Shown: one piece after another, positions 519 to 27,620 of the stretch
Layout of the letters: every line of letters starts with the position of its first letter
Numbering within the stretch: the stretch's first letter is position 1
The notes under the pieces: generated by a model
What the model was told of the DNA's origin: nothing
Seen by the model: the letters and a program-made list of their open reading frames with translations, nothing else
The model's database searches: none
Position numbers and translations under genes: made by a program
Virus record (IMG/VR): IMGVR_UViG_3300008255_000394
Span: 1 to 27,620 of that record
Origin: a virus
Taxonomy: Duplodnaviria > Caudoviricetes
Strand: one strand, 5' to 3'
Length of the DNA: 27,620 bases

Positions 519-586
519 AAACAAAAATCAATCAAGTAATTATAACAAATAAAACAGATAAATTAGTATTTGTTGTTGATACAGAT
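508..586 (+). repeat. 79-bp direct repeat, copy 1
   Basis: ATTTAAAATGAAAACAAAAATC...GTTGATACAGAT; identical to 1042-1120 except one T/C. Confidence 0.95.
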
Positions 587-718
587 AATATTAAAAAAAT
601 AGAACTTTTTAAGAAAAAAATTGAAGAATTTTTTGAAAGCAAAAAAAGAGTTTTAATTGTAGGTGGTGCTGAAATAATAAAATTTGAAAAACCCAAAAGA
701 TTTAAGAAACATTTATAA
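515..718 (+). CDS. Hypothetical protein
   Basis: 67 aa, coupled to upstream ORF; first 24 codons duplicated at 1049-1120. Confidence 0.6.
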   Translation: MKTKINQVIITNKTDKLVFVVDTDNIKKIELFKKKIEEFFESKKRVLIVGGAEIIKFEKPKRFKKHL

Positions 719-1214: not shown

Positions 1215-2515
1215 AAATATTTTTTGCTGGAGCAGAATCAAATGAACATAGAAAATCATTATTAGAAATTGGAGTAAAAAATATTTTATTAACTTTTTAT
1301 TATTTAAAGGATAAAAATGATGAAAAAATAAAAGAAATGTTTGATGAATTAAAAAAAGAAAATATAAACATTTTTTTAGATAGTGGGGCATTCTCTTTTA
1401 TGTATTCAAGTAGTGAAAAACCATCTTTTGAAGTATTAGAAGATTATGTAAAAGAATATATACTTTTCTTAAAAAAATACAAGGATTATTTAGAAATATA
1501 TGTTGAATTAGATGTGGATAAAGTAATTGGATTAGAAAATACTTTAAAATTAAGACAAAATATGATAGATGAAGGATTAAATCCAGTATTAGTTCACCAT
1601 TTTGAAACAAGAACAGATGAAATGTGGGAAGAAGCATGCAAAAATAATAAAATAGTGGCAATGGGAAGTATTGCTCAAGGTGAGCAGTTAAACATAGGAA
1701 AAATAGCCTCTTTATTAAACATAGCAAATAAATACAAAACAAAAGTACATGGATTTGGATTTACAAGATTGGATTTATTAAACAAATTAAAATTTTATTC
1801 CGTTGATTCCACATCTTGGTTAGGAGGTAATAAATTTGGGCAAACTGAAACCTATTATTTTGATGGAAAACAATTAAGAGAATATAGTCAAGAGGATAAA
1901 AATATTAGATTAAAGTTTAAAGAATTATGTGAAAAGATAGGGGTAGATTTTGAAAAATTGATAAAAGATGATGGAAGAGAAGTAAGAAAATTTAATACTT
2001 ATAATTGGAAAATCTTTTCAGATTACTTAGAAAACGAGTCTAAAAATTCCGATGGAATAAAAATCAAAAACGGATATGATAATTCAAAGTTTAATGCAGT
2101 AAAAACAGGATTATATGCAAGACACCCGGAAGCATTAGAACATATTAAATGTCCAAAGAAATGCGATGTGTTTATGAATACAGGAAAATGTGTCCATACA
2201 AAAAATCTAAAGATTTTAGAGGTTAAAGATTTAGAGGATATGAAGAAGAAAATGCTCAAATTAATAAACTTCACAGGAAAGCGATATGTATCGGGTTTAA
2301 TAGGAGAAGAACAAACAGAAGGTTTGTTAGATAGGGCGGTAGATAGAGTAGCCAATAATTATGCCAAATATATTGAAACATATCAAAAATTAACGGTTCC
2401 CCAAAATGAGATAATCATTAAAAATGAAAAAAGCATCGTAGAACTTATGAGGGACGCAAGGAAAGAATTAGATAATATTGATAACAAAAGCGGAAGCGAT
2501 AAAGAAACTAATTGA
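1211..2515 (+). CDS. TGT/DpdA-like transglycosylase (N-terminal ~275 aa) fused to probable terminase small subunit
   Basis: FLDSGAFS, YVELDV, VHGFG and SVDSTSW TGT-fold motifs; C-terminal FNAVKTGLYA (TerS-type NAxKxGxY) plus Cys cluster; overlaps the TerL start. Confidence 0.7.
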   Translation: MKIFFAGAESNEHRKSLLEIGVKNILLTFYYLKDKNDEKIKEMFDELKKENINIFLDSGAFSFMYSSSEKPSFEVLEDYVKEYILFLKKYKDYLEIYVELDVDKVIGLENTLKLRQNMIDEGLNPVLVHHFETRTDEMWEEACKNNKIVAMGSIAQGEQLNIGKIASLLNIANKYKTKVHGFGFTRLDLLNKLKFYSVDSTSWLGGNKFGQTETYYFDGKQLREYSQEDKNIRLKFKELCEKIGVDFEKLIKDDGREVRKFNTYNWKIFSDYLENESKNSDGIKIKNGYDNSKFNAVKTGLYARHPEALEHIKCPKKCDVFMNTGKCVHTKNLKILEVKDLEDMKKKMLKLINFTGKRYVSGLIGEEQTEGLLDRAVDRVANNYAKYIETYQKLTVPQNEIIIKNEKSIVELMRDARKELDNIDNKSGSDKETN

Positions 2516-3917
2516 AAAAAGAGATGTTAGGATTTTTAATCAAAAATTCTTTGGAGTTAATTTAACAACAACTCAAGAAGAAATAGTAAGGACTGTAGCT
2601 TTTGATGAACATAAACGAGTGGTTATTTCTTGTATGACAAGATATGGAAAATCATTTTGTGTAAGTTTGGGTTTACTTTTATGGATTATGATGAATGAAA
2701 GAAAAAGATTGGGTATAATTGCCCCAACAAATGAAAAAACATCAATCCTAAGAAATTATATGTCTAATTTTATTACTATGTGCCCAGACTTAATGGATTT
2801 ATTGGATTTAGATAAAAAAGGAACAGATAGAATTAAAAAAGAAGTAAGTAAACGAAGAATGACATGGAGAAATGGTATAGAAATGAGAACCCTCTCAGCA
2901 GAAGGTCATGGAGAACAACTTATGGGTTTTGGTTTTGATAAAGTAGTTGTAGACGAAACTTGTGATATTAAATTTGAAGTATTTAGGTCAAGAATAACAA
3001 GAATGTTAGGAGATAGTCCAAATGCCACCTACGTTGAGATAGGAAACCCGTGGCATAGAGATAATCATATGTGGATGCATTGGATTAACCCAAATTGGTT
3101 TAAGATACACGTAGATTGGAAAACTGCTTTAAAAGAAGGAAGAATTAGTGAAAATTTTTTAGAAGAACAAAGAAATCAATTAACCAATAGGGAATTTAAA
3201 ATATTATATGAAGCAGAATTCCCAGAAGAAAGTGAAGACCAATTAATTCATTTTTCTTGGATAAGAGATGCCATTAAACCCTTTGTAGAAATTTCGGGAA
3301 TTAAAACACTCGGGGTAGATGTAGCAAGAACAGGAAAAGATAGCACAGTATTAACTTATGGAGTAGTTTCTAATGATTTTTATATAGTAAAAGGAATACA
3401 AGAGCATAATCAAGAGGATACTATGCGTACGGTGGATAGAATTTTAACATTGCATTATAAAGAAAAGTTTAATAGAATTATTGTGGATACAAATGGGCTT
3501 GGTGCTGGTGTAGCAGATAGATTAAATCAATTAAAAAGGGATGGTCAATTAAATTGTGAAATAATTGAATTCTTTGGGGGAAGACAACCAGGTCCAGAAA
3601 TTAAGAAAATAACTACGGAAAAGAAAGTGGTTAAATCAAGATTTTTAAATACAAAAGCAGAAGCGTATTTTAAATTAAGGAGTATATTTGAGGAGGGAAG
3701 AATTATAATTCCCAATAATCCAAAATTGATAGACCAATTAACTAAAATGAAATGGATACTTACGGGAAATGAAAAGATTAGAGTTTTAGACCCCGGTATT
3801 GCTAAAGAAGACACCAGTGAAGAAAAATCCCCTGATTTTGCAGATAGTTTGTGTTATTTTTGTTATTCGGGAAAGAGAGAAGTGCTTACATTTCAGTTTT
3901 TAGATTTTAAAAAATAA
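2478..3917 (+). CDS. terL: Terminase large subunit
   Basis: Walker A-like TRYGKS, Walker B VVVDE, IGNP coupling motif, RNase H-like LGVDVARTGKD, VDTNGLGAGV and SPDFADSL; TTG start. Confidence 0.95.
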   Translation: MITKAEAIKKLIEKRDVRIFNQKFFGVNLTTTQEEIVRTVAFDEHKRVVISCMTRYGKSFCVSLGLLLWIMMNERKRLGIIAPTNEKTSILRNYMSNFITMCPDLMDLLDLDKKGTDRIKKEVSKRRMTWRNGIEMRTLSAEGHGEQLMGFGFDKVVVDETCDIKFEVFRSRITRMLGDSPNATYVEIGNPWHRDNHMWMHWINPNWFKIHVDWKTALKEGRISENFLEEQRNQLTNREFKILYEAEFPEESEDQLIHFSWIRDAIKPFVEISGIKTLGVDVARTGKDSTVLTYGVVSNDFYIVKGIQEHNQEDTMRTVDRILTLHYKEKFNRIIVDTNGLGAGVADRLNQLKRDGQLNCEIIEFFGGRQPGPEIKKITTEKKVVKSRFLNTKAEAYFKLRSIFEEGRIIIPNNPKLIDQLTKMKWILTGNEKIRVLDPGIAKEDTSEEKSPDFADSLCYFCYSGKREVLTFQFLDFKK

Positions 3918-3928: not shown

Positions 3929-3949
3929 GACTAATTGATTGCCATAATG

Positions 3950-4432
3950 ATGACTTCTGGAAAATGCCCCCATCCTTGGAATAAAAATAAAAAAGGCACT
4001 TTTCTTAAAGGACATACCCAAATAAATAATGGAAAAGGTTATTTTGAGAAAGGTAGAAAAATACCAGAATGGCAAAAACAAGCAAATTCTTTAATACAAA
4101 CAGAAAGATATGAACTTGGTTTACACCCCCTAAAAAAATTGAATAAATTAGCATTCGAAAATAGATTAATAACTAATTGGTATGGCATTGGAAGAGCAAA
4201 TTGGAAAAAAAAATCTAAAGAAATACTTTTTAGAGATGGACATCATTGTATGAGATGCCATAAATCAATAAATAAATATAGTTATAATTGCCATCATAAG
4301 ATACCCTATCAAATAAGTAAAAATAACAGCGACAATAATTTAGTTTCATTATGTAGGAGTTGTCATACAATAGAAGAATGGAAAATAAGAAAAGAATTAA
4401 ATAAATCCAAAAACATCCAAAGATTTAAATAA
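3950..4432 (+). CDS. Free-standing HNH endonuclease 1
   Basis: PWNK and FxKG DNA-binding repeats; RDGHHCMRC, HHKIPY, NLVSLCRSCH; start moved to 3950 based on TATA spacing. Confidence 0.9.
   Translation: MTSGKCPHPWNKNKKGTFLKGHTQINNGKGYFEKGRKIPEWQKQANSLIQTERYELGLHPLKKLNKLAFENRLITNWYGIGRANWKKKSKEILFRDGHHCMRCHKSINKYSYNCHHKIPYQISKNNSDNNLVSLCRSCHTIEEWKIRKELNKSKNIQRFK
4424..4431 (+). promoter_or_regulatory. Archaeal TATA box (TTTAAATA) for portal
   Basis: 21 nt before ATG 4453; the 17-mer ATTTAAATAACAAAAAG recurs at 24471. Confidence 0.75.
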
Positions 4433-4452: not shown

Positions 4453-7400
4453 ATGTCTGAACCAAACTTAAAAAAAGAAATTGCCAGACTAAGAAGTGAA
4501 GTAAGAAAGTTATCAAAAGATAAGAACTTACAAAAAGAGACTAACCCATTTACAGGGCTTGTAACAGGTAACTATTGGACACAAACAGGGATGCCTTGGG
4601 TTTCAAGTTCTGGAAGGAAGGCGGTTCTCACGGAGTGGTTTTGATTTTATTAGGGAAACTAAATAAAAGAACAAGCAACCCATCAGAGGACAACCGAGAC
4701 GGGTAGATACCAATGAACTTAGACAGTTCTCTCAAACATTTTGGATTAATTCCTGTGTTAATACTTATTTAGATGAAATAAGCGGAGTAGATTGGGATAT
4801 AATTGAAAAAGAAGGATATAATCACGATTGGGTTAAAAAACAAATAAATGAAGTTAAAACCTTTTTTGAATATCCAAATAAAAACAGAGAAAGTTTAACT
4901 ACAATAATAAGAGCATTACTTAAAGATATTCTTGAATTAGATGCTGGTGTTTTAGTAAAAGTATTTGATATTAATTCTTATGATTTTGATAATATTGAAC
5001 CCAAATCTGGTTCGCCATTACTTAAACCAAAAGGTCAAAGAAAAATGGTTGAATTATACGCTCGTGATGGAGCTTGTATAAGATTTGGTGAAATGATAGA
5101 AACTGATTTGGGATTTATACCAATAGGCAGAATAGTCAATGAAAAAATACAATGTAATGTCAAATCATATAATTTAGAAACAAAAGAAATAGAATGGAAA
5201 CCCATTATCAATTGGTTCAATAACGGAGTTACTACCGATTGGATAAGATTGAAAGCAAAGACTAATAGAAAATTCAGAAGTTTGACTGCTACACCAAATC
5301 ATAATATTTTAACTCTTGAAGGATATAAACAAGCAAAAGATATTTATTGTGGAGATACAATATTCACACAAAGTTATGATATTACAGAAGACCAAAAACA
5401 GATTATTTTAGGTAGTTTATTGGGTGATGGTAGTTTAACTAAAGGAGACTCGCAACAAGCAAAATACAAATATTCTGAAACCCATTCAATAAAGCAAAAA
5501 GAATATTTACTTTGGAAAAGAGATAATCTCAATTTCTTAGATTGGAGAACAGAAGAATTTTTGTCAAGATATGATAAAAAACATCAACCAACAGAAAAGA
5601 TAAGGATTTATTCAAACGCAGAAATTATTTTTGAAGATTTTTATAATTTAAAATACCCAGAATTAAAAATAGAAATGATTGAGCAATTAAATGAACTTGG
5701 TTTGGCTATTTGGGTACAGGATGATGGATATTATAATCAAGATAGTTATTCTATTTCTTGTGGAAAGACACCATTAGATACATTGTATGAAATAGCAACA
5801 ACATTGTATTCTAAATTTGGAATAATCTTTAAAGTAAGAGAAGGAAATAAAGAGAATTTATTAGAAGTTGGAAGAGAGGACGGAAGAAAATTAAAGGAGT
5901 TAATAAAACCCTACATTCACACATCTATGTCCTACAAAATAGGTGAAGGAGAAAACAAAATAAAAGAGATAAACAAAGATTATTCAATAAAGATATACCC
6001 AGTAAAAATATATTCCAGAGAAGAATTAAATGAATATGATGCAAGATATGATATTGAAGTTCAAGACAATCATAATTTCTTTGCTCAAGGATTATTGGTT
6101 AGTAATAGTTTTTTAAAAGAGGTTGATAAATTTGGATTTGAAATAGGATATTGGCAATATAGTTATCAAATACCCGCACATCCAATGTGGTTTAATAAAG
6201 ATGAGGTTTGTTATATTAGTAGAAATCAAAGAAGTATGAGTTGTTATGGATTTGCACCCACACAGTCAATACTTGATATAGTGAAATCTCTTCATTATTC
6301 ACTTTTGTATAATAAACGATTTTTTGAAGAAAATTCAATACCAGATGGTGTTCTTAGTGTATTAGATACAAATGAAACAGAATTAAAAAATTTCATTTCA
6401 AATTGGCAAAGAGATTTTAAAGCACAACCTCATAAATTTGCGGTGTTGAATAAAGCTATTCAATGGCAACCTTTTACAATAACTCAAAGAGAATTAGAAT
6501 TTCTTGAAACACAAAGTTGGTATTATAAAATGGTTATAAGTGCTTTTGGTTTAACTCCAACTGAATTAGGTATTACAGAAGATGTTAATCGTGCAACGAG
6601 TAACAATCAATCAGAACTAAGTCGTAGAAAAGGAATAAGACCTTTGCTTAAGATACTTGAAAAATATTTTAATGAAGAAATAATAAGTGAATTTGGATAT
6701 GAAGGAATTGAATTTACATTTATTTATGATGACCCAAGTGAAAAAAACCAAAGATTAACTAATTGGAAACTTGAAATAGATATGGGAGTTAAAACTGTCA
6801 ATGAAATAAGAAATGAAATGGGGCTTGAACCAGTTGAATGGGGAGAATTACCAATGAGTAGTTTAGGTAGAATAGTTAGTTCCCCTATTGAAGAAAATAA
6901 TCCAAAACAAGAAGAAAAATACCAAATCAATCAAAAGAGAGAAGAAGGAAAAAATGAAGAAAAACCAGTAGAAAAAGGAAAAAAATTAATTATGGACACA
7001 GATGATTTAATCTCTGAACACGAGAAATTAGTAAGAATATTAGAGCAAGGAAATCCAAATGAATTAAAAGAAGAAGCAAAACATCAAAAAAATGAATTAA
7101 ATGATTATAAAAGACAAGCAGAAAAAGGAATAGACGACGGTCAATATTATAGAGAACCAAGTTATGAAATAGAAAATCGTGGAAAAATAACTCAACCGCA
7201 AAATGAAAATACTTGTCCTCATTGTGGTAAAAATACTTTAAACCTTGAAGTAGATTTAGACAGTTTAGTAGGAGAAGCAAAAAGGTATAGATGTATAAAT
7301 TGCAATAGTTACTTCACACAAGAAGAATTAGATAAAGAAGTTCTAAATTCTCTTAGTAATACTCTTATGGCTAATAATTCAACAGAGCCAGTGACCAACC

Positions 7401-7933
7401 CAACTTGGAGCCCGAAGTCTTGTCAGAATTGTTCTAATGAGCAAAAACCACTAAATAAAGGAGACGTTGATATGGAAACAAAGGATTTTTGTGGTTTTGA
7501 TTATTCAAAGAGTTATGAACAAATAAGTGCTTATATAAACTCAAAAGAATATGAAAAATTACTCGATAAATATTTAAGTGATTTAACTAAAAAAAAAAGA
7601 GATAAAATAAAAGAAATAATTTATTTAGGAATGAAAGATGGCTTAACAATCAGAGAAATTTCAAATAGAATAAATAAAATAATAAAAGACGAAGAAAGAA
7701 GTGAATTAATAAGCAGAACCGAAGTAATAAGAGTTGCTAATGAAGGACAAATTAAAAAGTTTGAAGAAAAAGGCGTTGAAAAAGTTATTTGGCTTTCAGC
7801 ACCAGAAGATGGGAGATTATGTAATAAATGTAAAAAATTAGACAGAAAAATATTTTTAACAAAAAATATAAAAGGAAAAATTCCTCTTCATTGTCGTTGT
7901 AGGTGTTCGGTTTCAGAATATATAGAGGTATAA
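4453..7933 (+). CDS. Portal protein, join(4453..4643,4675..7933), with intein and C-terminal Zn-ribbon and MuF (SPP1 gp7-like) domains
   Basis: Spliced frame is 1149 aa (805 aa after intein removal); portal motifs YGFAP, FFEENSIPDGVLSV, ISAFGLTPTELG, TVNEIRNEMGLEP; MuF motifs ISRTEV, RLCNKC, IPLHCRCRCS; 4667-5044 is open in the portal frame but has no start codon. Confidence 0.85.
4644..4674 (+). other. 31-nt archaeal bulge-helix-bulge (BHB) intron in portal mRNA
   Basis: Central helix GUUU(4638-41)/GAAC(4669-72), 3-nt bulges UG^A (4642-44) and AA^G (4673-75), intron stem UUUUAUUAG/CUAAAUAAAA; removal gives TGG and restores the frame. Confidence 0.8.
5075..6106 (+). mobile_element. Intein with LAGLIDADG homing endonuclease (344 aa) in portal
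   Basis: Starts at Cys (RDGA|CIRFGEMIET), block B ATPNHNIL, LAGLIDADG motifs IILGSLLGDG and LAIWVQDDG, ends YDIEVQDNHNFFAQGLLVSN|S. Confidence 0.93.
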
Positions 7934-13355: not shown

Positions 13356-14050
13356 TGGTTCTTTATGAAAGACTTGGAAGAAATATAGATAATGGACTAA
13401 TTGGATATTGGAGATTAGATGATTTTATGGGCTCAGCAAGTCCAACAGCAAAAGATTTATCTTTATTTAGAGATGGAACTTTAAACGGTCCTATTGCTTT
13501 TATAGGGCGTAGAGGATATTCAAAAACAGCAATGTATTTTGATGGAATAGATGATTACATTAATTTAAATTCAACAAGTATTTTGCCTTCTGGAACAACT
13601 AAATTTACTATTTCTGCTTGGATATTTACAACCAGAGTAAATGTAGACCAATGTATAATTGGTAATATTCGTTTTATAGGAACAAGTGGGTTTAAATATT
13701 CTATAAATGCAAGTGGCAAAATGTATTTTTCTTTTTATGATACAGTTGGGACATTAAAAATTAAAACAGATACAGGAACCGCTTTATCAGCAAATGTTTC
13801 ATACCATGTAGCAGTAAATTTTGATGGGACAACCATACAATTTTATACAAACGGAGTTTTATCCTCTTCTCAAACAGATTTAGGCAATGGAATTTTAAGT
13901 GAAAATACTGCACATAACGTTAGGATAGGTCATCGTCAAGGAGCAGATTTACTTGAATTCTTTAAAGGAAGTATACAAGAGGTTCAAGTTTATAATAGAA
14001 ATTTAAATACAAATGAGATAAAAGAAATATATCTCTCAAAAGACAGATGA
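13355..14050 (+). CDS. LamG/concanavalin A-like virion protein
   Basis: GLIGYWRLD, FDGIDDYI, FTISAWI, YHVAV, FKGSIQEVQVYNRNL. Confidence 0.9.
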   Translation: MVLYERLGRNIDNGLIGYWRLDDFMGSASPTAKDLSLFRDGTLNGPIAFIGRRGYSKTAMYFDGIDDYINLNSTSILPSGTTKFTISAWIFTTRVNVDQCIIGNIRFIGTSGFKYSINASGKMYFSFYDTVGTLKIKTDTGTALSANVSYHVAVNFDGTTIQFYTNGVLSSSQTDLGNGILSENTAHNVRIGHRQGADLLEFFKGSIQEVQVYNRNLNTNEIKEIYLSKDR

Positions 14051-14229
14051 AAGAATACATAGAAGCAATTGAACAAATAGAAGAAGAACCAGAATGTTTT
14101 AAAGAAGAAGTTATAAGTAATGACGAAGAAACAATCGTCTTAGTTGAGAGTTTATTACATCCATTAAAAACATATTCATTAAGAAAGCAAGGTTTAGCTT
14201 GTGAAACAGAAGAAATAGTATACCGATAG
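14047..14229 (+). CDS. Acidic hypothetical protein
   Basis: 60 aa, ATGA overlap. Confidence 0.5.
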   Translation: MKEYIEAIEQIEEEPECFKEEVISNDEETIVLVESLLHPLKTYSLRKQGLACETEEIVYR

Positions 14230-14332
14230 GTTCAGCAATTAGAATTTCAAATGCTGGAACAAATTTAAAGTGTATGTAGGAACAACTGCGAGATATATTT
14301 GGTTAGCAACAGCAGCACCAACAGGTCCATAA
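14229..14332 (+). pseudogene. Start-less remnant of a fibre-like gene C-terminus
   Basis: GSAIRISNAGTN and KFKVYVGTTARYIWLATAAPTGP* in adjacent frames, ending just before the U-tract. Confidence 0.4.
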
Positions 14333-15272: not shown

Positions 15273-15824
15273 ATGAAGCAAGGGCAGACAAACAAAGGCA
15301 GTTTTAAGAAAAATTGTATTCCTTGGAATAAGGGAGTAAAAGGATATAATAAAGGACATCCTTCTTATACTTTAGGAAAGCACTGGAAGTTAAATCAGGA
15401 GACTAAAGATAAAATAGGTAGAGCTAATTCTATATCTTTGAAAGGAAAAATATTGCCCCAAACAGTTAAGGATAAGATAAGTAAAGCGAATAAGGGAAAA
15501 GTTCCAAAGGTGACTTACCAAAAAGGAGAAAAGCACCCTAATTGGAAAGGTGGTATAAGTAATGAACCTTATGGACAGGAATTTAATAAGGAATTAAAGG
15601 AAAAAGTAAGAAAGAAATATAATTATAGATGTCAAGAGTGTTTCAGGCATCAGAATGAACTTTATAGAAAAGGAAGTAAATATAGTTTGATAGTGCATCA
15701 TATAGATTTCAACAAAAAAAATAATCAGGAAGATAATTTAATTCCTTTGTGTTTAGAATGTCATTCACAAACTAATTTCAATAGGCAGAACTGGATAAAT
15801 CATTTTCAGGGGAAGATTATATGA
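15273..15824 (+). CDS. Free-standing HNH endonuclease 2 (NUMOD3-like repeats)
   Basis: PWNKG, ETKDKIG, HPNWKGG, CQEC, VHHIDFNKKNN, NLIPLCLECH. Confidence 0.92.
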   Translation: MKQGQTNKGSFKKNCIPWNKGVKGYNKGHPSYTLGKHWKLNQETKDKIGRANSISLKGKILPQTVKDKISKANKGKVPKVTYQKGEKHPNWKGGISNEPYGQEFNKELKEKVRKKYNYRCQECFRHQNELYRKGSKYSLIVHHIDFNKKNNQEDNLIPLCLECHSQTNFNRQNWINHFQGKII

Positions 15825-18560: not shown

Positions 18561-19532
18561 ATGGCACAAAATTATGTTAGTGGTTATGCAAGTTATGTAA
18601 ACTATGGATATGAATTGACTTATGGAGCAGGAGCAGTAAGTGCAAGAACATTCGGTCACGGAACTAAAATAACCCATACCAGAAGAAATAATATGGAAAG
18701 ATTGTATGGGCTTGGTGCAAGAAATGCAACTACTACAATAGCAAAAAAATATGAAGGTTCGGCAAGTGTTGAATTTGTTTTAAGTAATGGTAGTTTTTTT
18801 AGAGCTGTTTTAGGAACTGTAACAGATGGAGGAGCATCACCTTACACTCATACTTACACAGAAGCCAATACCATACCAAGTTTTGCAATAGATACAGGAA
18901 CAGAATTAGGCACAAACGACGAAGTAGTAGAACTTCAAGGATGTAAAGTAGCAAGTTTGACACTTACAGCAGCAATTGATGAAGTAGCAAAAGTAAGACT
19001 TGAATGTCCTTATAAGACAGAAACACTTACAACAAGTGGAATAGGCAGTCAAGTTGCGGAAACTGAAAGTCCATTTACATTCGCACAAGGCACACTTCAA
19101 TTACCAAGTGGAAGCACAATCGGAGCTGTTCAGTCTATTGAATTAACTATTAATAATTCAATAGAAGGACTTTGGGGATTAGGAAGTAGAGTAAAAACTG
19201 CACAAGTAGAAAAAATAAGAGAATATAACATTAAAATGACAGTTGCATTTAATGATGTAACTACTTTATTGACTAAATTCCTTGGGGCAAGTGGAGCACC
19301 AGTTGCAGGAACTCCAGCAGCACAAGCAACGTTAATCCTTACATTTACAAATGGGGAAACAGGAAGTGCTCAAAGGAGTTTCGTAATGACCTTAGCGAAT
19401 ATTTATTTGGATGAAGATAGTTTACCAAAGGATGTAAATGAAGTACTCAAAGAAGATGTAAGTGGTTGGGCATTAAGTGGAACAAGTGTAGTTTATTCCA
19501 ATAATGTAGCGTCAGATGATGACATTCCTTAA
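18561..19532 (+). CDS. Major tail tube protein
   Basis: YGYELTYG N-terminus, YGLGAR and WGLGSR repeats, GCKVASLTL, SIELTINNSIE; no sheath gene; GGAGGT RBS. Confidence 0.85.
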   Translation: MAQNYVSGYASYVNYGYELTYGAGAVSARTFGHGTKITHTRRNNMERLYGLGARNATTTIAKKYEGSASVEFVLSNGSFFRAVLGTVTDGGASPYTHTYTEANTIPSFAIDTGTELGTNDEVVELQGCKVASLTLTAAIDEVAKVRLECPYKTETLTTSGIGSQVAETESPFTFAQGTLQLPSGSTIGAVQSIELTINNSIEGLWGLGSRVKTAQVEKIREYNIKMTVAFNDVTTLLTKFLGASGAPVAGTPAAQATLILTFTNGETGSAQRSFVMTLANIYLDEDSLPKDVNEVLKEDVSGWALSGTSVVYSNNVASDDDIP

Positions 19533-19571: not shown

Positions 19572-20033
19572 ATGGCTTATGCCAAATATCATAGGAAAGA
19601 AAAAGAAAGAGAAAAATCAAAAAAAAGATATGATATGGGATTATACAATCGTAAGAATAAGAAAAACAAGTATAAAAAAAAGGGATATAATCCAAATTCA
19701 AAACCTATAAAAGAAAAACATTGGAATTGGAAAGGGGGAATTACTCCTTTAAGAGATGTAATAAGACATCTTTTTGAATATAGGCAATGGCGTTCAGATG
19801 TATTTACAAGAGATAATTTTACTTGTCAATATTGTGGGGTTAGAGGATGTTATCTTGAAGCAGACCATCATATAAAATCATTTGCACAAATTATAGAGGA
19901 GAACAATATAAATACAATTGAAAAAGCAATTAATTGTGAAGAATTATGGAATCTTAATAATGGAAGAACTCTATGTAAAGATTGTCATAATTTAACTAAA
20001 ACAAGGAGGTTAAATAAATGCAAAAAGATATAG
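19572..20033 (+). CDS. Free-standing HNH endonuclease 3
   Basis: HWNWKGGIT, WRSDVFTRDNFTCQYCG, DHHIKSF, NNGRTLCKDCH. Confidence 0.92.
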   Translation: MAYAKYHRKEKEREKSKKRYDMGLYNRKNKKNKYKKKGYNPNSKPIKEKHWNWKGGITPLRDVIRHLFEYRQWRSDVFTRDNFTCQYCGVRGCYLEADHHIKSFAQIIEENNINTIEKAINCEELWNLNNGRTLCKDCHNLTKTRRLNKCKKI

Positions 20034-21619: not shown

Positions 21620-21743
21620 ATTTAATTTAACCACTTTAGAAAGATTAATGACTATGAATAATAATTTTTTATATAAAATTCTTGAGCAATTAAATGAAAT
21701 AAAAAATGAAATTAAATTAATTAAATCGGAGGTAAAAAAATGA
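21612..21743 (+). CDS. 43-aa coiled-coil ORF (not in ORF track)
   Basis: MPEFNLTTLERLMTMNNNFLYKILEQLNEIKNEIKLIKSEVKK; GAGGAG upstream, ATGA overlap with HNH4. Confidence 0.45.
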   Translation: MPEFNLTTLERLMTMNNNFLYKILEQLNEIKNEIKLIKSEVKK

Positions 21744-22237
21744 CATTTCAAAAAGGAGAAAAAAATTTTATGTTTGGTAAAATACCTTGGAATAAAGGTA
21801 AAAAAATGTCTAAAGAAACAAGAGAAAAACTTAGTGAAAGTCATAAAGGTAAAAATATAGGACACCCAAAATATAATTTTAAATCGGCATGGAATAAAGG
21901 ATTAATTGGTTTCAAATCTGGTTCAGAACATTATAATTGGAAAGGGGGCATTACTCCATTTAACAGAAAATTAAGATGTAGTTCTAAATGGAAAATTTGG
22001 AGAGAATTGGTTTTTTTAAGAGATAATTTCATTTGCCAAAATCCAAATTGTGAATATTGTCGTAACAAAATTGGAAATATGTTGCATCCGCATCATATTA
22101 AACCAATAAGTTTATATCCAAAATTAGCATTCGATGTAAATAATGGAATTACTTATTGCAAGGAATTTCATATAAATTCAAAAAAACTACATAAAGGAAT
22201 TTTGAAAGGAGGAAGATTACAATTACATACACATTAA
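21740..22237 (+). CDS. Free-standing HNH endonuclease 4 (NUMOD3)
   Basis: PWNKGKKMSKETREKLSESHKG, HYNWKGG, VFLRDNFICQ, HPHHIKP, NNGITYCKEFH. Confidence 0.92.
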   Translation: MTFQKGEKNFMFGKIPWNKGKKMSKETREKLSESHKGKNIGHPKYNFKSAWNKGLIGFKSGSEHYNWKGGITPFNRKLRCSSKWKIWRELVFLRDNFICQNPNCEYCRNKIGNMLHPHHIKPISLYPKLAFDVNNGITYCKEFHINSKKLHKGILKGGRLQLHTH

Positions 22238-26804: not shown

Positions 26805-26989
26805 TGGGCGTATTTAGTTCAATATTAATAGAAACATTAAGTGGATTAGTTAAAAACCTTTTTTGGTTTATATTAATTATTTGGGCTGTAAAGACGATTG
26901 TAAAACAAATGCCTAAATGGTTAATTGTTGTTTTCAAAGAAATGGAAAAGTTTAGATTACTTGACGAAACATTACGGAGAAAAAAGTGA
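26804..26989 (+). CDS. Single-TM membrane protein
   Basis: LFWFILIIWAV. Confidence 0.55.
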   Translation: MGVFSSILIETLSGLVKNLFWFILIIWAVKTIVKQMPKWLIVVFKEMEKFRLLDETLRRKK

Positions 26990-27620
26990 TACATCATAAG
27001 ATAAATAATAAAGAGATAAGATTTGGAGTTGTATCTGATACACATCTTTGTTCTGATAGTGAAGATTTAAATTCACTTAATTTAATGTTTGATATCTTTC
27101 AAAAAGAAGGAATTAACATAGTTCTACACGCGGGGGATATAACAGATGGATTTGGGGTTTATCTTGGTCAGGAAAATTCTCTTAAAGTAACAGGAGTAGC
27201 AAAACAAGCAAAATATACAATAGACCACTACCCAATAAGAAAAGGAATTGAAAATTTAATTATAGGCGGAAACCATGATTTAAAGTCATTTAAAAGAACT
27301 GGGATAGATGTATGTAGTTTAATTACTCATGGCGGTTATGTAGAAGATGGAACCGAACAATTTGAAATAAAAGGAAGAAAAGATATTAAATATTTAGGTA
27401 GATATTATGCACGTGTTAAATGGAATGAAATGAATATAGATTTAGTTCATCCAGATTATGGTTTTGCTTACGCGGTTAGTTATTCTCCACAGCGTTACAT
27501 TAATGAATTAGAAGGTGGAAGTAAACCAGATATTCTTTTATTTGGTCATTTACACAGGGCTATGTTTATGAGTTATAGAAATGTAAATTTAATTATGGCG
27601 GGGGCGTTCCAAAAGCAAAA
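26986..27620 (+). CDS. Calcineurin-like metallophosphoesterase, truncated by window end (not in ORF track)
   Basis: GTG start (GTGA overlap); VVSDTH, HAGDITDG, GGNHD, LVHP, FGHLH. Confidence 0.9.
   Translation, partial: MIHHKINNKEIRFGVVSDTHLCSDSEDLNSLNLMFDIFQKEGINIVLHAGDITDGFGVYLGQENSLKVTGVAKQAKYTIDHYPIRKGIENLIIGGNHDLKSFKRTGIDVCSLITHGGYVEDGTEQFEIKGRKDIKYLGRYYARVKWNEMNIDLVHPDYGFAYAVSYSPQRYINELEGGSKPDILLFGHLHRAMFMSYRNVNLIMAGAFQKQ

Follow-up and report, generated by a model that had tools for sequence, protein, structure and literature searches.

A bulge-helix-bulge micro-intron predicted in the portal gene of a tailed virus with a probable archaeal host

The virus record IMGVR_UViG_3300008255_000394, analyzed here over a stretch of 27,620 nucleotides (hereafter, the window), encodes a portal protein whose reading frame is broken by a 31-nt insert at positions 4644–4674. 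Judged by its sequence, this insert is a precisely bounded micro-intron of the bulge-helix-bulge (BHB) type in an essential viral gene, and it passes each sequence-level test of an archaeal BHB intron. We consider it very probable (roughly 0.87, for archaeal host, BHB folding, cleavage, and ligation taken together) that 4644–4674 is cut from the portal mRNA by EndA, the tRNA-splicing endonuclease of an archaeal host, and that the exons are joined by a host RNA ligase. The pre-mRNA would fold into a BHB, host EndA would cut both bulges, and the host ligase would join 4643 to 4675, restoring an invariant tryptophan (Trp) codon and allowing translation of a 1149-amino-acid portal-intein-MuF precursor, from which the intein would then remove itself. 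Only 12 copies of the portal are needed per particle, so that incomplete splicing would be tolerated.

The open reading frame (ORF) at 4453–4644 ends at a premature TGA that the insert supplies by splitting a Trp codon after its second base. The second portal frame opens at 4667 and, as an earlier note on this DNA had claimed, meets its first start codon (ATG, GTG, or TTG) at 5045, and recomputing the removal of 4644–4674 yields 1149 codons with one stop, i.e., the single frame reported in that note. A pair-by-pair check likewise recovered every base pair of the BHB that it had described between 4625 and 4690 (Table 1). All four pairs of the central helix are present (G4638–C4672, U4639–A4671, U4640–A4670, and U4641–G4669, the last one a G-U pair), while the intron stem joins 4645–4651 to 4662–4668 and 4652–4653 to 4659–4660, with A4661 bulged and a loop at 4654–4658. 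In the predicted fold, a sixth pair (G4624–C4691) extends the outer helix 4625–4629/4686–4690. Helices are therefore present outside both bulges, with 7 + 2 bp on the intron side and, on the exon side, 2 bp followed farther out by the 6-bp helix. EndA is described as cutting between the second and third residues of each bulge (available text of PMC2738675), and cuts placed by this rule coincide with the exon boundaries defined by homology.

Those boundaries were also recovered by a structure-blind search, in which a single excision restored the conserved portal peptide, and this excision was 4644–4674, the BHB register. Homologous proteins, which the earlier note had suggested aligning across the junction, read through it in 73 of 96 cases, with the exact peptide EWFWQPIRGQPRRVDTNE found in 49, and the split Trp is invariant across 22 aligned portals. 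The N-terminus is absent from the other 23 of the 96 database proteins, which, together with the fact that both pieces are open frames, would suit a portal made in two parts: the first frame would give an N-terminal peptide of 63 aa, and an internal start would give the C-terminal protein. We regard this arrangement as very improbable because 123 conserved codons of the second piece stand ahead of its first usual start (5045), which lies 10 codons before the intein. The break points also vary among relatives' loci, and for several of the database proteins without an N-terminus the truncation is an artefact of gene calling on interrupted loci (P0033 is the product of locus L011, and P0035 matches L042). 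As for chance, a complete central helix together with a stem of at least 7 bp arose in 5e-5 of 20,000 shuffles of the intron (central helix alone, 0.11). Across both strands of the window, 55,080 excisions of 31 nt are possible, of which 1,236 have a 4/4 helix and two, including 4644–4674, show the full pattern.

The insert is unlikely to be an assembly slip, since a 281-nt contig from a second sequencing run (X3) is identical to the window over 4544–4824, without difference or gap. This run represents a different sample and study code from the same habitat and year, perhaps from one campaign. A contig of the probable source run spans 4505–6370. The earlier note had proposed checking the insert against DNA reads, and the X3 contig provides such support at the level of assembled sequence. 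A pseudogene or an assembly error in a defective virus is, in our judgment, exceedingly improbable: the insert is followed by 1085 stop-free codons in what is the only portal gene of the contig, and 16 inserts in relatives share its geometry. On the other side of this question, only assembled contigs are available, and the assembly of the window is apparently not free of flaws: near 14188, a re-assembly of the probable source run reads 18 bases more, in frame in ORF 14047–14229. The probable cause is an 18-nt deletion in the window, unrelated to the portal insert, or a strain variant, and the extra 18 bases are not BHB-like.

Pattern scans of viral and metagenome contigs yielded 57 distinct matches, of which four (L043, L047, L057, and L088) were dropped because they are not portals. 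The remaining 53 portal loci (the window's record counted once; L086 agrees with it in length and position and was taken to be the window) comprise 34 that are intact in the stretch concerned, 8 with short inserts, 2 with group-I-like inserts, and 9 with one or two extra bases (+1/+2). The 8 loci with short inserts, window included, hold 17 inserts of 13–36 nt at 12 positions within ~135 coding bases, with three inserts per gene in L014, L033, L042, and L061 and two in L085. In registers allowed by homology, the central helix is complete in 14 of the 17 and has 3/4 pairs, the outer one mismatched, in the other 3, and 15 of the 17 have an adjoining intron stem of 4–9 bp. None of the slid registers (8 per insert) attains 4/4, and the combined shuffle probability of the 17 central helices is ~1e-21 under the assumption that inserts are independent of one another. 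Without exception, the inserts disrupt the frame, 12 by their length and the 5 whose length is a multiple of three by an in-frame stop. The check for BHBs at frame breaks and for covariation that the earlier note had called for thus came out in favor of its intron reading and its exact boundaries, through 16 further BHB-type inserts alongside the uninterrupted homologues and through compensatory central-helix pairs at three of the four positions common to at least two loci (L001 vs L049, C-G/U-A; L033 vs L042, U-A/G-C; L042 vs L085, C-G/G-C). For L061, the BHB is the minimum-energy fold (z −3.8), and two records with terminal repeats (G001 and G002) each carry three such introns in their sole portal gene. 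Exon-flank pairing is stronger in 6 loci with an intron near the position of the window's than in 33 intact loci (Mann–Whitney p 0.003, uncorrected for kinship).

The window's insert position was found in no other locus. On a tree of 47 ingroup portals, from which six loci with <100 aligned residues were left out, the 8 rows with BHB inserts are so scattered that 7 changes are needed to explain them, and shuffled labels need no more, which suggests repeated gain, loss, or exchange rather than a single old intron. A motif scan for a second BHB intron elsewhere in the window gave matches at chance level only, and no other frame break was seen in window genes with homologues in 10 related records. 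In the relatives' genes, 12 breaks besides the portal N-terminus were tested; they proved to be overlaps of a stop with the next start, domains inserted in frame, or a split intein, and none has a convincing BHB. Within this sample, the portal N-terminus is therefore a hot spot. No additional interrupted locus came from two more pattern scans of viral sequences or from a scan with an alignment, and six distant portals (L153–L158) as well as L125 and L151 are uninterrupted. One practical consequence is that gene callers truncate portal genes: some of the 23 database portals without an N-terminus owe this to such interruptions.

Several features favor an archaeal host, which we consider probable from the sequence data. 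An archaeal-type TFB-recognition element (BRE) and TATA box precede the portal, which likely has a leaderless start, and a purine-rich plus TTTAAATA-type motif precedes the portal in 20 of the 27 loci tested, vs 6.2 expected from shuffles. A scan for sigma-70 promoters stayed at chance level. Two related records carry tRNA-Met(CAU) genes between terminase and portal (G001 19407–19495, plus strand; G007 584–684, minus strand), and both of these genes have introns at 37/38, of 12 nt and 27 nt, respectively, that by eye take the BHB form with 4/4 and 3/4 central-helix pairs. Among annotated proteins, the capsid protein matches only that of Haloarcula tailed virus 2 (23%), and a terminase homologue (41%) is on a contig filed under Candidatus Aenigmatarchaeota. 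Among the 20 portal matches listed from annotated phages, Halorubrum tailed virus 28 has the lowest E-value. When prokaryote genomes were scanned with the upstream pattern, the only matches were two due to chance, and no provirus was found. EndA (PF01974) was not found in 6 virus records, nor RtcB (PF01139) in 5, most of these records being incomplete by estimate; the splicing enzymes would accordingly be the host's.

A number of observations weigh against an EndA-spliced intron. ViennaRNA does not favor the BHB register, with a central-helix pair probability of ~0, and the best BHB-holding fold has −15.9 kcal/mol vs −19.5 kcal/mol for the best fold overall. Measured from each insert's own best fold, the gap is widest for the window's BHB, at +3.6 kcal/mol, against 0 to +3.4 for the remaining 16 inserts. 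Only 2 exon pairs stand beside its bulges, and its central helix includes a G-U. The earlier note had called this BHB "textbook": its pairs and bulges hold up, and the adjective is generous given the different best fold and the 2-bp flank. Loose BHB-like patterns are common by chance, with 19 on the plus strand and 25 on the minus strand of the window under one filter, which 4644–4674 itself failed on account of its 3′ bulge G, and the case therefore rests on the homology-fixed boundaries. Regarding the host, the best matches of the portal among annotated phages are 22–28% identical and mostly bacterial, and one homologue is filed under Gammaproteobacteria. Finally, nine loci have +1/+2 insertions in the same stretch without a BHB, so that some other rescue route exists in the portal family.

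These nine loci, which seem translationally rescued, also bear on the possibility that the RNA stays uncut and the ribosome skips the insert, by programmed bypass or by a frameshift at the stop and hairpin. A stop codon followed by a hairpin does resemble bypass signals, as in T4 gene 60. Programmed bypass uses matched take-off and landing codons, with whole codons on either side. Matching take-off and landing codons are absent here. A hop could also not rebuild the invariant Trp codon, whose second and third bases are separated by the insert; among the other inserts, break points fall in every codon phase, and what is kept is the BHB geometry. We thus consider ribosomal skipping to be improbable for 4644–4674.

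The +1/+2 alleles have a pattern of their own. Ten sites spread over 8 loci (L008, L011, L012, L041, L056, L062, L068, and L073, at codons QPIR-G and PRR-V) have a single base added (two in L011) in one or the other of two invariant arginine (Arg) codons, which then read CG-N-Y. All ten sites start with CG, vs 9 of 66 in intact alleles, and the fourth base is a pyrimidine at all ten (locus background ~0.4), with the portal intact downstream. From their sequence, the CG-N-Y alleles look like a coded +1 frameshift or a four-letter Arg step. The ninth locus, L072, has an additional C within a C run. Four database proteins (P0041 and P0043–P0045) imply the same extra-base arrangement, and 7 of the 9 loci have an HNH gene upstream. 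Structurally, the +1/+2 alleles have no fold in common, and their exon scaffold is not stronger (p 0.22).

A third kind of interruption consists of three related inserts of 173–191 nt (L009 4815–5001; L053 2067–2239 and ~1807–1997) that are 68–81% alike and end in G. They contain a GACUG/CAGUC pairing that corresponds to the P7 helix of group I introns, and they are likely very small group I introns as far as their sequence can tell. The L009 insert is preceded by C, not U, and Rfam returned nothing on L015/L053 at E 0.1 nor on L053 1750–2300 at E 10. A group I identity, which calls for a ribozyme core (P3–P7) and a terminal G, was rejected for 4644–4674 itself, which is 31 nt long, ends in AA, and is unlike the L009 and L053 inserts. 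Inteins occupy two nearby sites in these portals, with one in the window, two in G010, and one in G002, which brings the types of intervening element in this one gene to four.

We then considered why such an intron would be kept. In the window, an endonuclease-free intron at a conserved site adjoins a free-standing HNH gene that ends 211 bases upstream of it, as a collaborative homing pair requires. Upstream ORFs (the nearest one or two per locus) were compared with Pfam for 52 of 70, and all 70 were screened with an HNH pattern. An HNH gene lies directly upstream of 13 of 18 scorable interrupted portals vs 1 of 33 intact ones (Fisher p 2e-7), or 13 of 18 vs 1 of 18 within the subclade (p 8e-5), and the sole intact portal with an HNH has a different, shorter one. 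The HNH subfamily of the window is found upstream of 11 other interrupted portals, and in all 12 of these loci the interruption, be it a BHB intron, a group-I-like insert, or +1/+2 bases, falls within ~30 bases of the others. Such an association would follow from a nuclease directed at the uninterrupted site, with any interruption shielding its carrier. The HNH would cut intron-less portal alleles in a mixed infection, carrying both elements along. Whether disruption of the upstream HNH's recognition site is what maintains the intron is, on these sequence patterns, an evenly balanced question. Against such homing, an HNH is present at 4 of 7 scorable loci when BHB loci are taken alone (L033, L061, and L085 are without), and on well-supported branches 6 independent pairs gave 4.8 in the same direction and 0 in the opposite one (sign test, median p 0.06). 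In addition, an alignment scan started from the HNH found 3 of 80 loci to be portal-linked among the matches listed, all of them known, and a similar scan with a single protein found none.

The intron may instead be spliced by EndA and be kept without any link to the HNH, either neutrally or as a regulatory device for timing or for the portal-to-capsid ratio. Splicing would presumably cut portal output relative to the downstream capsid genes, an HNH is absent at three BHB loci, and the tree-based association test is not significant. The unconserved intron position, the 34 uninterrupted loci among 53, and the fact that portals next to an HNH of the window's subfamily are always interrupted, by insertions of three unrelated types, argue in the other direction, and we see this alternative as possible if somewhat doubtful. 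Among the functional ideas of the earlier note, a selfish element fits better in view of the 7 changes for 8 carriers, the 12 positions, and the HNH link, while a conserved timing switch fits poorly with so many uninterrupted loci. More broadly, and as a tentative proposal to which we give slightly less than even odds, this virus lineage may repeatedly make new protein-spliced micro-introns inside the target of its own HNH, where group-I-like ribozymes and four-letter Arg steps would be other ways of shielding it. Host tRNA splicing would then serve as general mRNA splicing for virion assembly, and intron birth would be visible in a 135-base stretch.

Known systems resemble this arrangement in part. 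According to the available text of PMC2738675, the intron of the crenarchaeal cbf5 pre-mRNA is likewise a short coding-region intron with a BHB-like motif, with the same cut site, in the codon of an indispensable residue and in the 30–40 nt range. It is a single intron at one conserved position of a cellular gene, with demonstrated splicing, whereas the portal inserts lie in a viral structural gene at 12 positions in ~135 bases, with up to three per gene, and their splicing is predicted. The BHB intron in the 5′ untranslated region of Haloferax volcanii HVO_1309 (PMC7714728) is also an mRNA substrate of the tRNA-splicing endonuclease, unlike the portal insert in the untranslated region of a cellular mRNA; the available text of that paper gives cbf5 as the only other mRNA case. 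In viruses, 12-bp introns or indels of rudiviruses and lipothrixviruses (Peng et al., as reported in PMC2738675 and PMC4390879) have been proposed as archaeal-type introns in viral coding genes. These are of fixed length and in frame, and their splicing is putative and perhaps unneeded, whereas the portal inserts all disrupt the frame and are predicted to form an extended BHB, each with a hairpin of its own. The earlier note knew of no described BHB intron in a viral protein-coding gene, a remark that has to be qualified for these putative 12-bp introns (PMC2738675). Beyond them, our literature search, whose coverage left subscription journals and supplements outside, found no BHB intron reported in a viral portal or other viral gene, and the available text of PMC12397907, PMC11291895, and PMC8651126 contained nothing on viral mRNA introns.

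Motif definitions (BHB, hBH, and HBh′) follow PMC4090602, in which non-canonical and multiple tRNA introns share the motif of the portal inserts, tolerate relaxed flanking helices, and occur several close together in one RNA. Unlike these, the portal introns have a viral mRNA as substrate and a scaffold from synonymous exon positions. Collaborative homing in phages (PMC2988022) also pairs an endonuclease-free intron at a conserved coding site with an adjacent free-standing nuclease gene; it involves group I ribozyme introns of bacteriophages, whereas the partner in the portal would be a protein-spliced micro-intron and cutting by the nuclease is putative. If our reading is true, the 17 frame-breaking BHB inserts would make mRNA splicing common in archaeal viruses and would tie particle assembly to a host enzyme. 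Because these introns are tiny, differently placed, and found beside intron-less alleles, the origin and spread of archaeal introns would be testable in vitro.

Table 1 Features of the window around the predicted portal intron
Feature	Position	Strand	Remarks
Terminase large subunit	2478–3917	+	Context gene
Free-standing HNH endonuclease gene, candidate homing partner	3935–4432	+	PF01844, E 6e-8; between terminase and portal
Archaeal-type BRE + TATA box	4417–4431	+	22 bases before portal ATG
Portal exon 1, 63 codons + 2 bases	4453–4643	+	Matches N-terminus of full-length homologues
Predicted exon–exon scaffold	4624–4691	+	2 bp 4636–4637/4676–4677; 6-bp helix 4624–4629/4686–4691, probability ~1.0
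Central helix 5′ strand, 4 bp, exon 1	4638–4641	+	Pair check
5′ bulge UGA, 3 nt	4642–4644	+	Predicted cut 4643/4644
BHB-type intron (predicted), 31 nt	4644–4674	+	Sole excision giving back conserved peptide; pairs verified
Intron hairpin, 7 + 2 bp	4645–4668	+	Pair probabilities 0.45–0.98
Central helix 3′ strand, intron	4669–4672	+	Pair check
3′ bulge AAG, 3 nt	4673–4675	+	Predicted cut 4674/4675
Portal exon 2	4675–7933	+	Phage_portal PF04860, intein, C-terminal Phage_Mu_F PF04233 (~7604–7912)
LAGLIDADG intein in exon 2, 344 aa	5075–6106	+	Pfam PF14890, PF03161; 1032-nt gap vs homologues

Overall, the window holds a tailed-virus morphogenesis module (terminase, HNH, portal, prohead protease, capsid, and tail tube). 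Solved portal structures align only from residue 171 of a homologue, which places the interrupted segment outside their coverage. Three more free-standing HNH genes lie in the structural module (15273–15824, 19572–20033, and 21740–22237), next to neighbors without visible interruption. A 434-aa ORF at 1211–2515 has no Pfam match, and its first 280 residues may resemble DpdA-like 7-deazaguanine DNA-modification proteins. A short frame-broken remnant follows ORF 14047 at 14225–14332, and a frame that by eye is metallophosphoesterase-like (26985–27620) runs off the contig end. In the related record G003 (~2390–3290, minus strand), the intein of a neck or head gene is split by an HNH frame: its N-terminal half stops, and the overlapping HNH frame continues into the C-terminal half. 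In-frame, domain-sized insertions of 261–690 nt, one of them LamG-like by eye, occur in small head-tail genes, namely at G001 32199–32888 and in several G007 structural genes.

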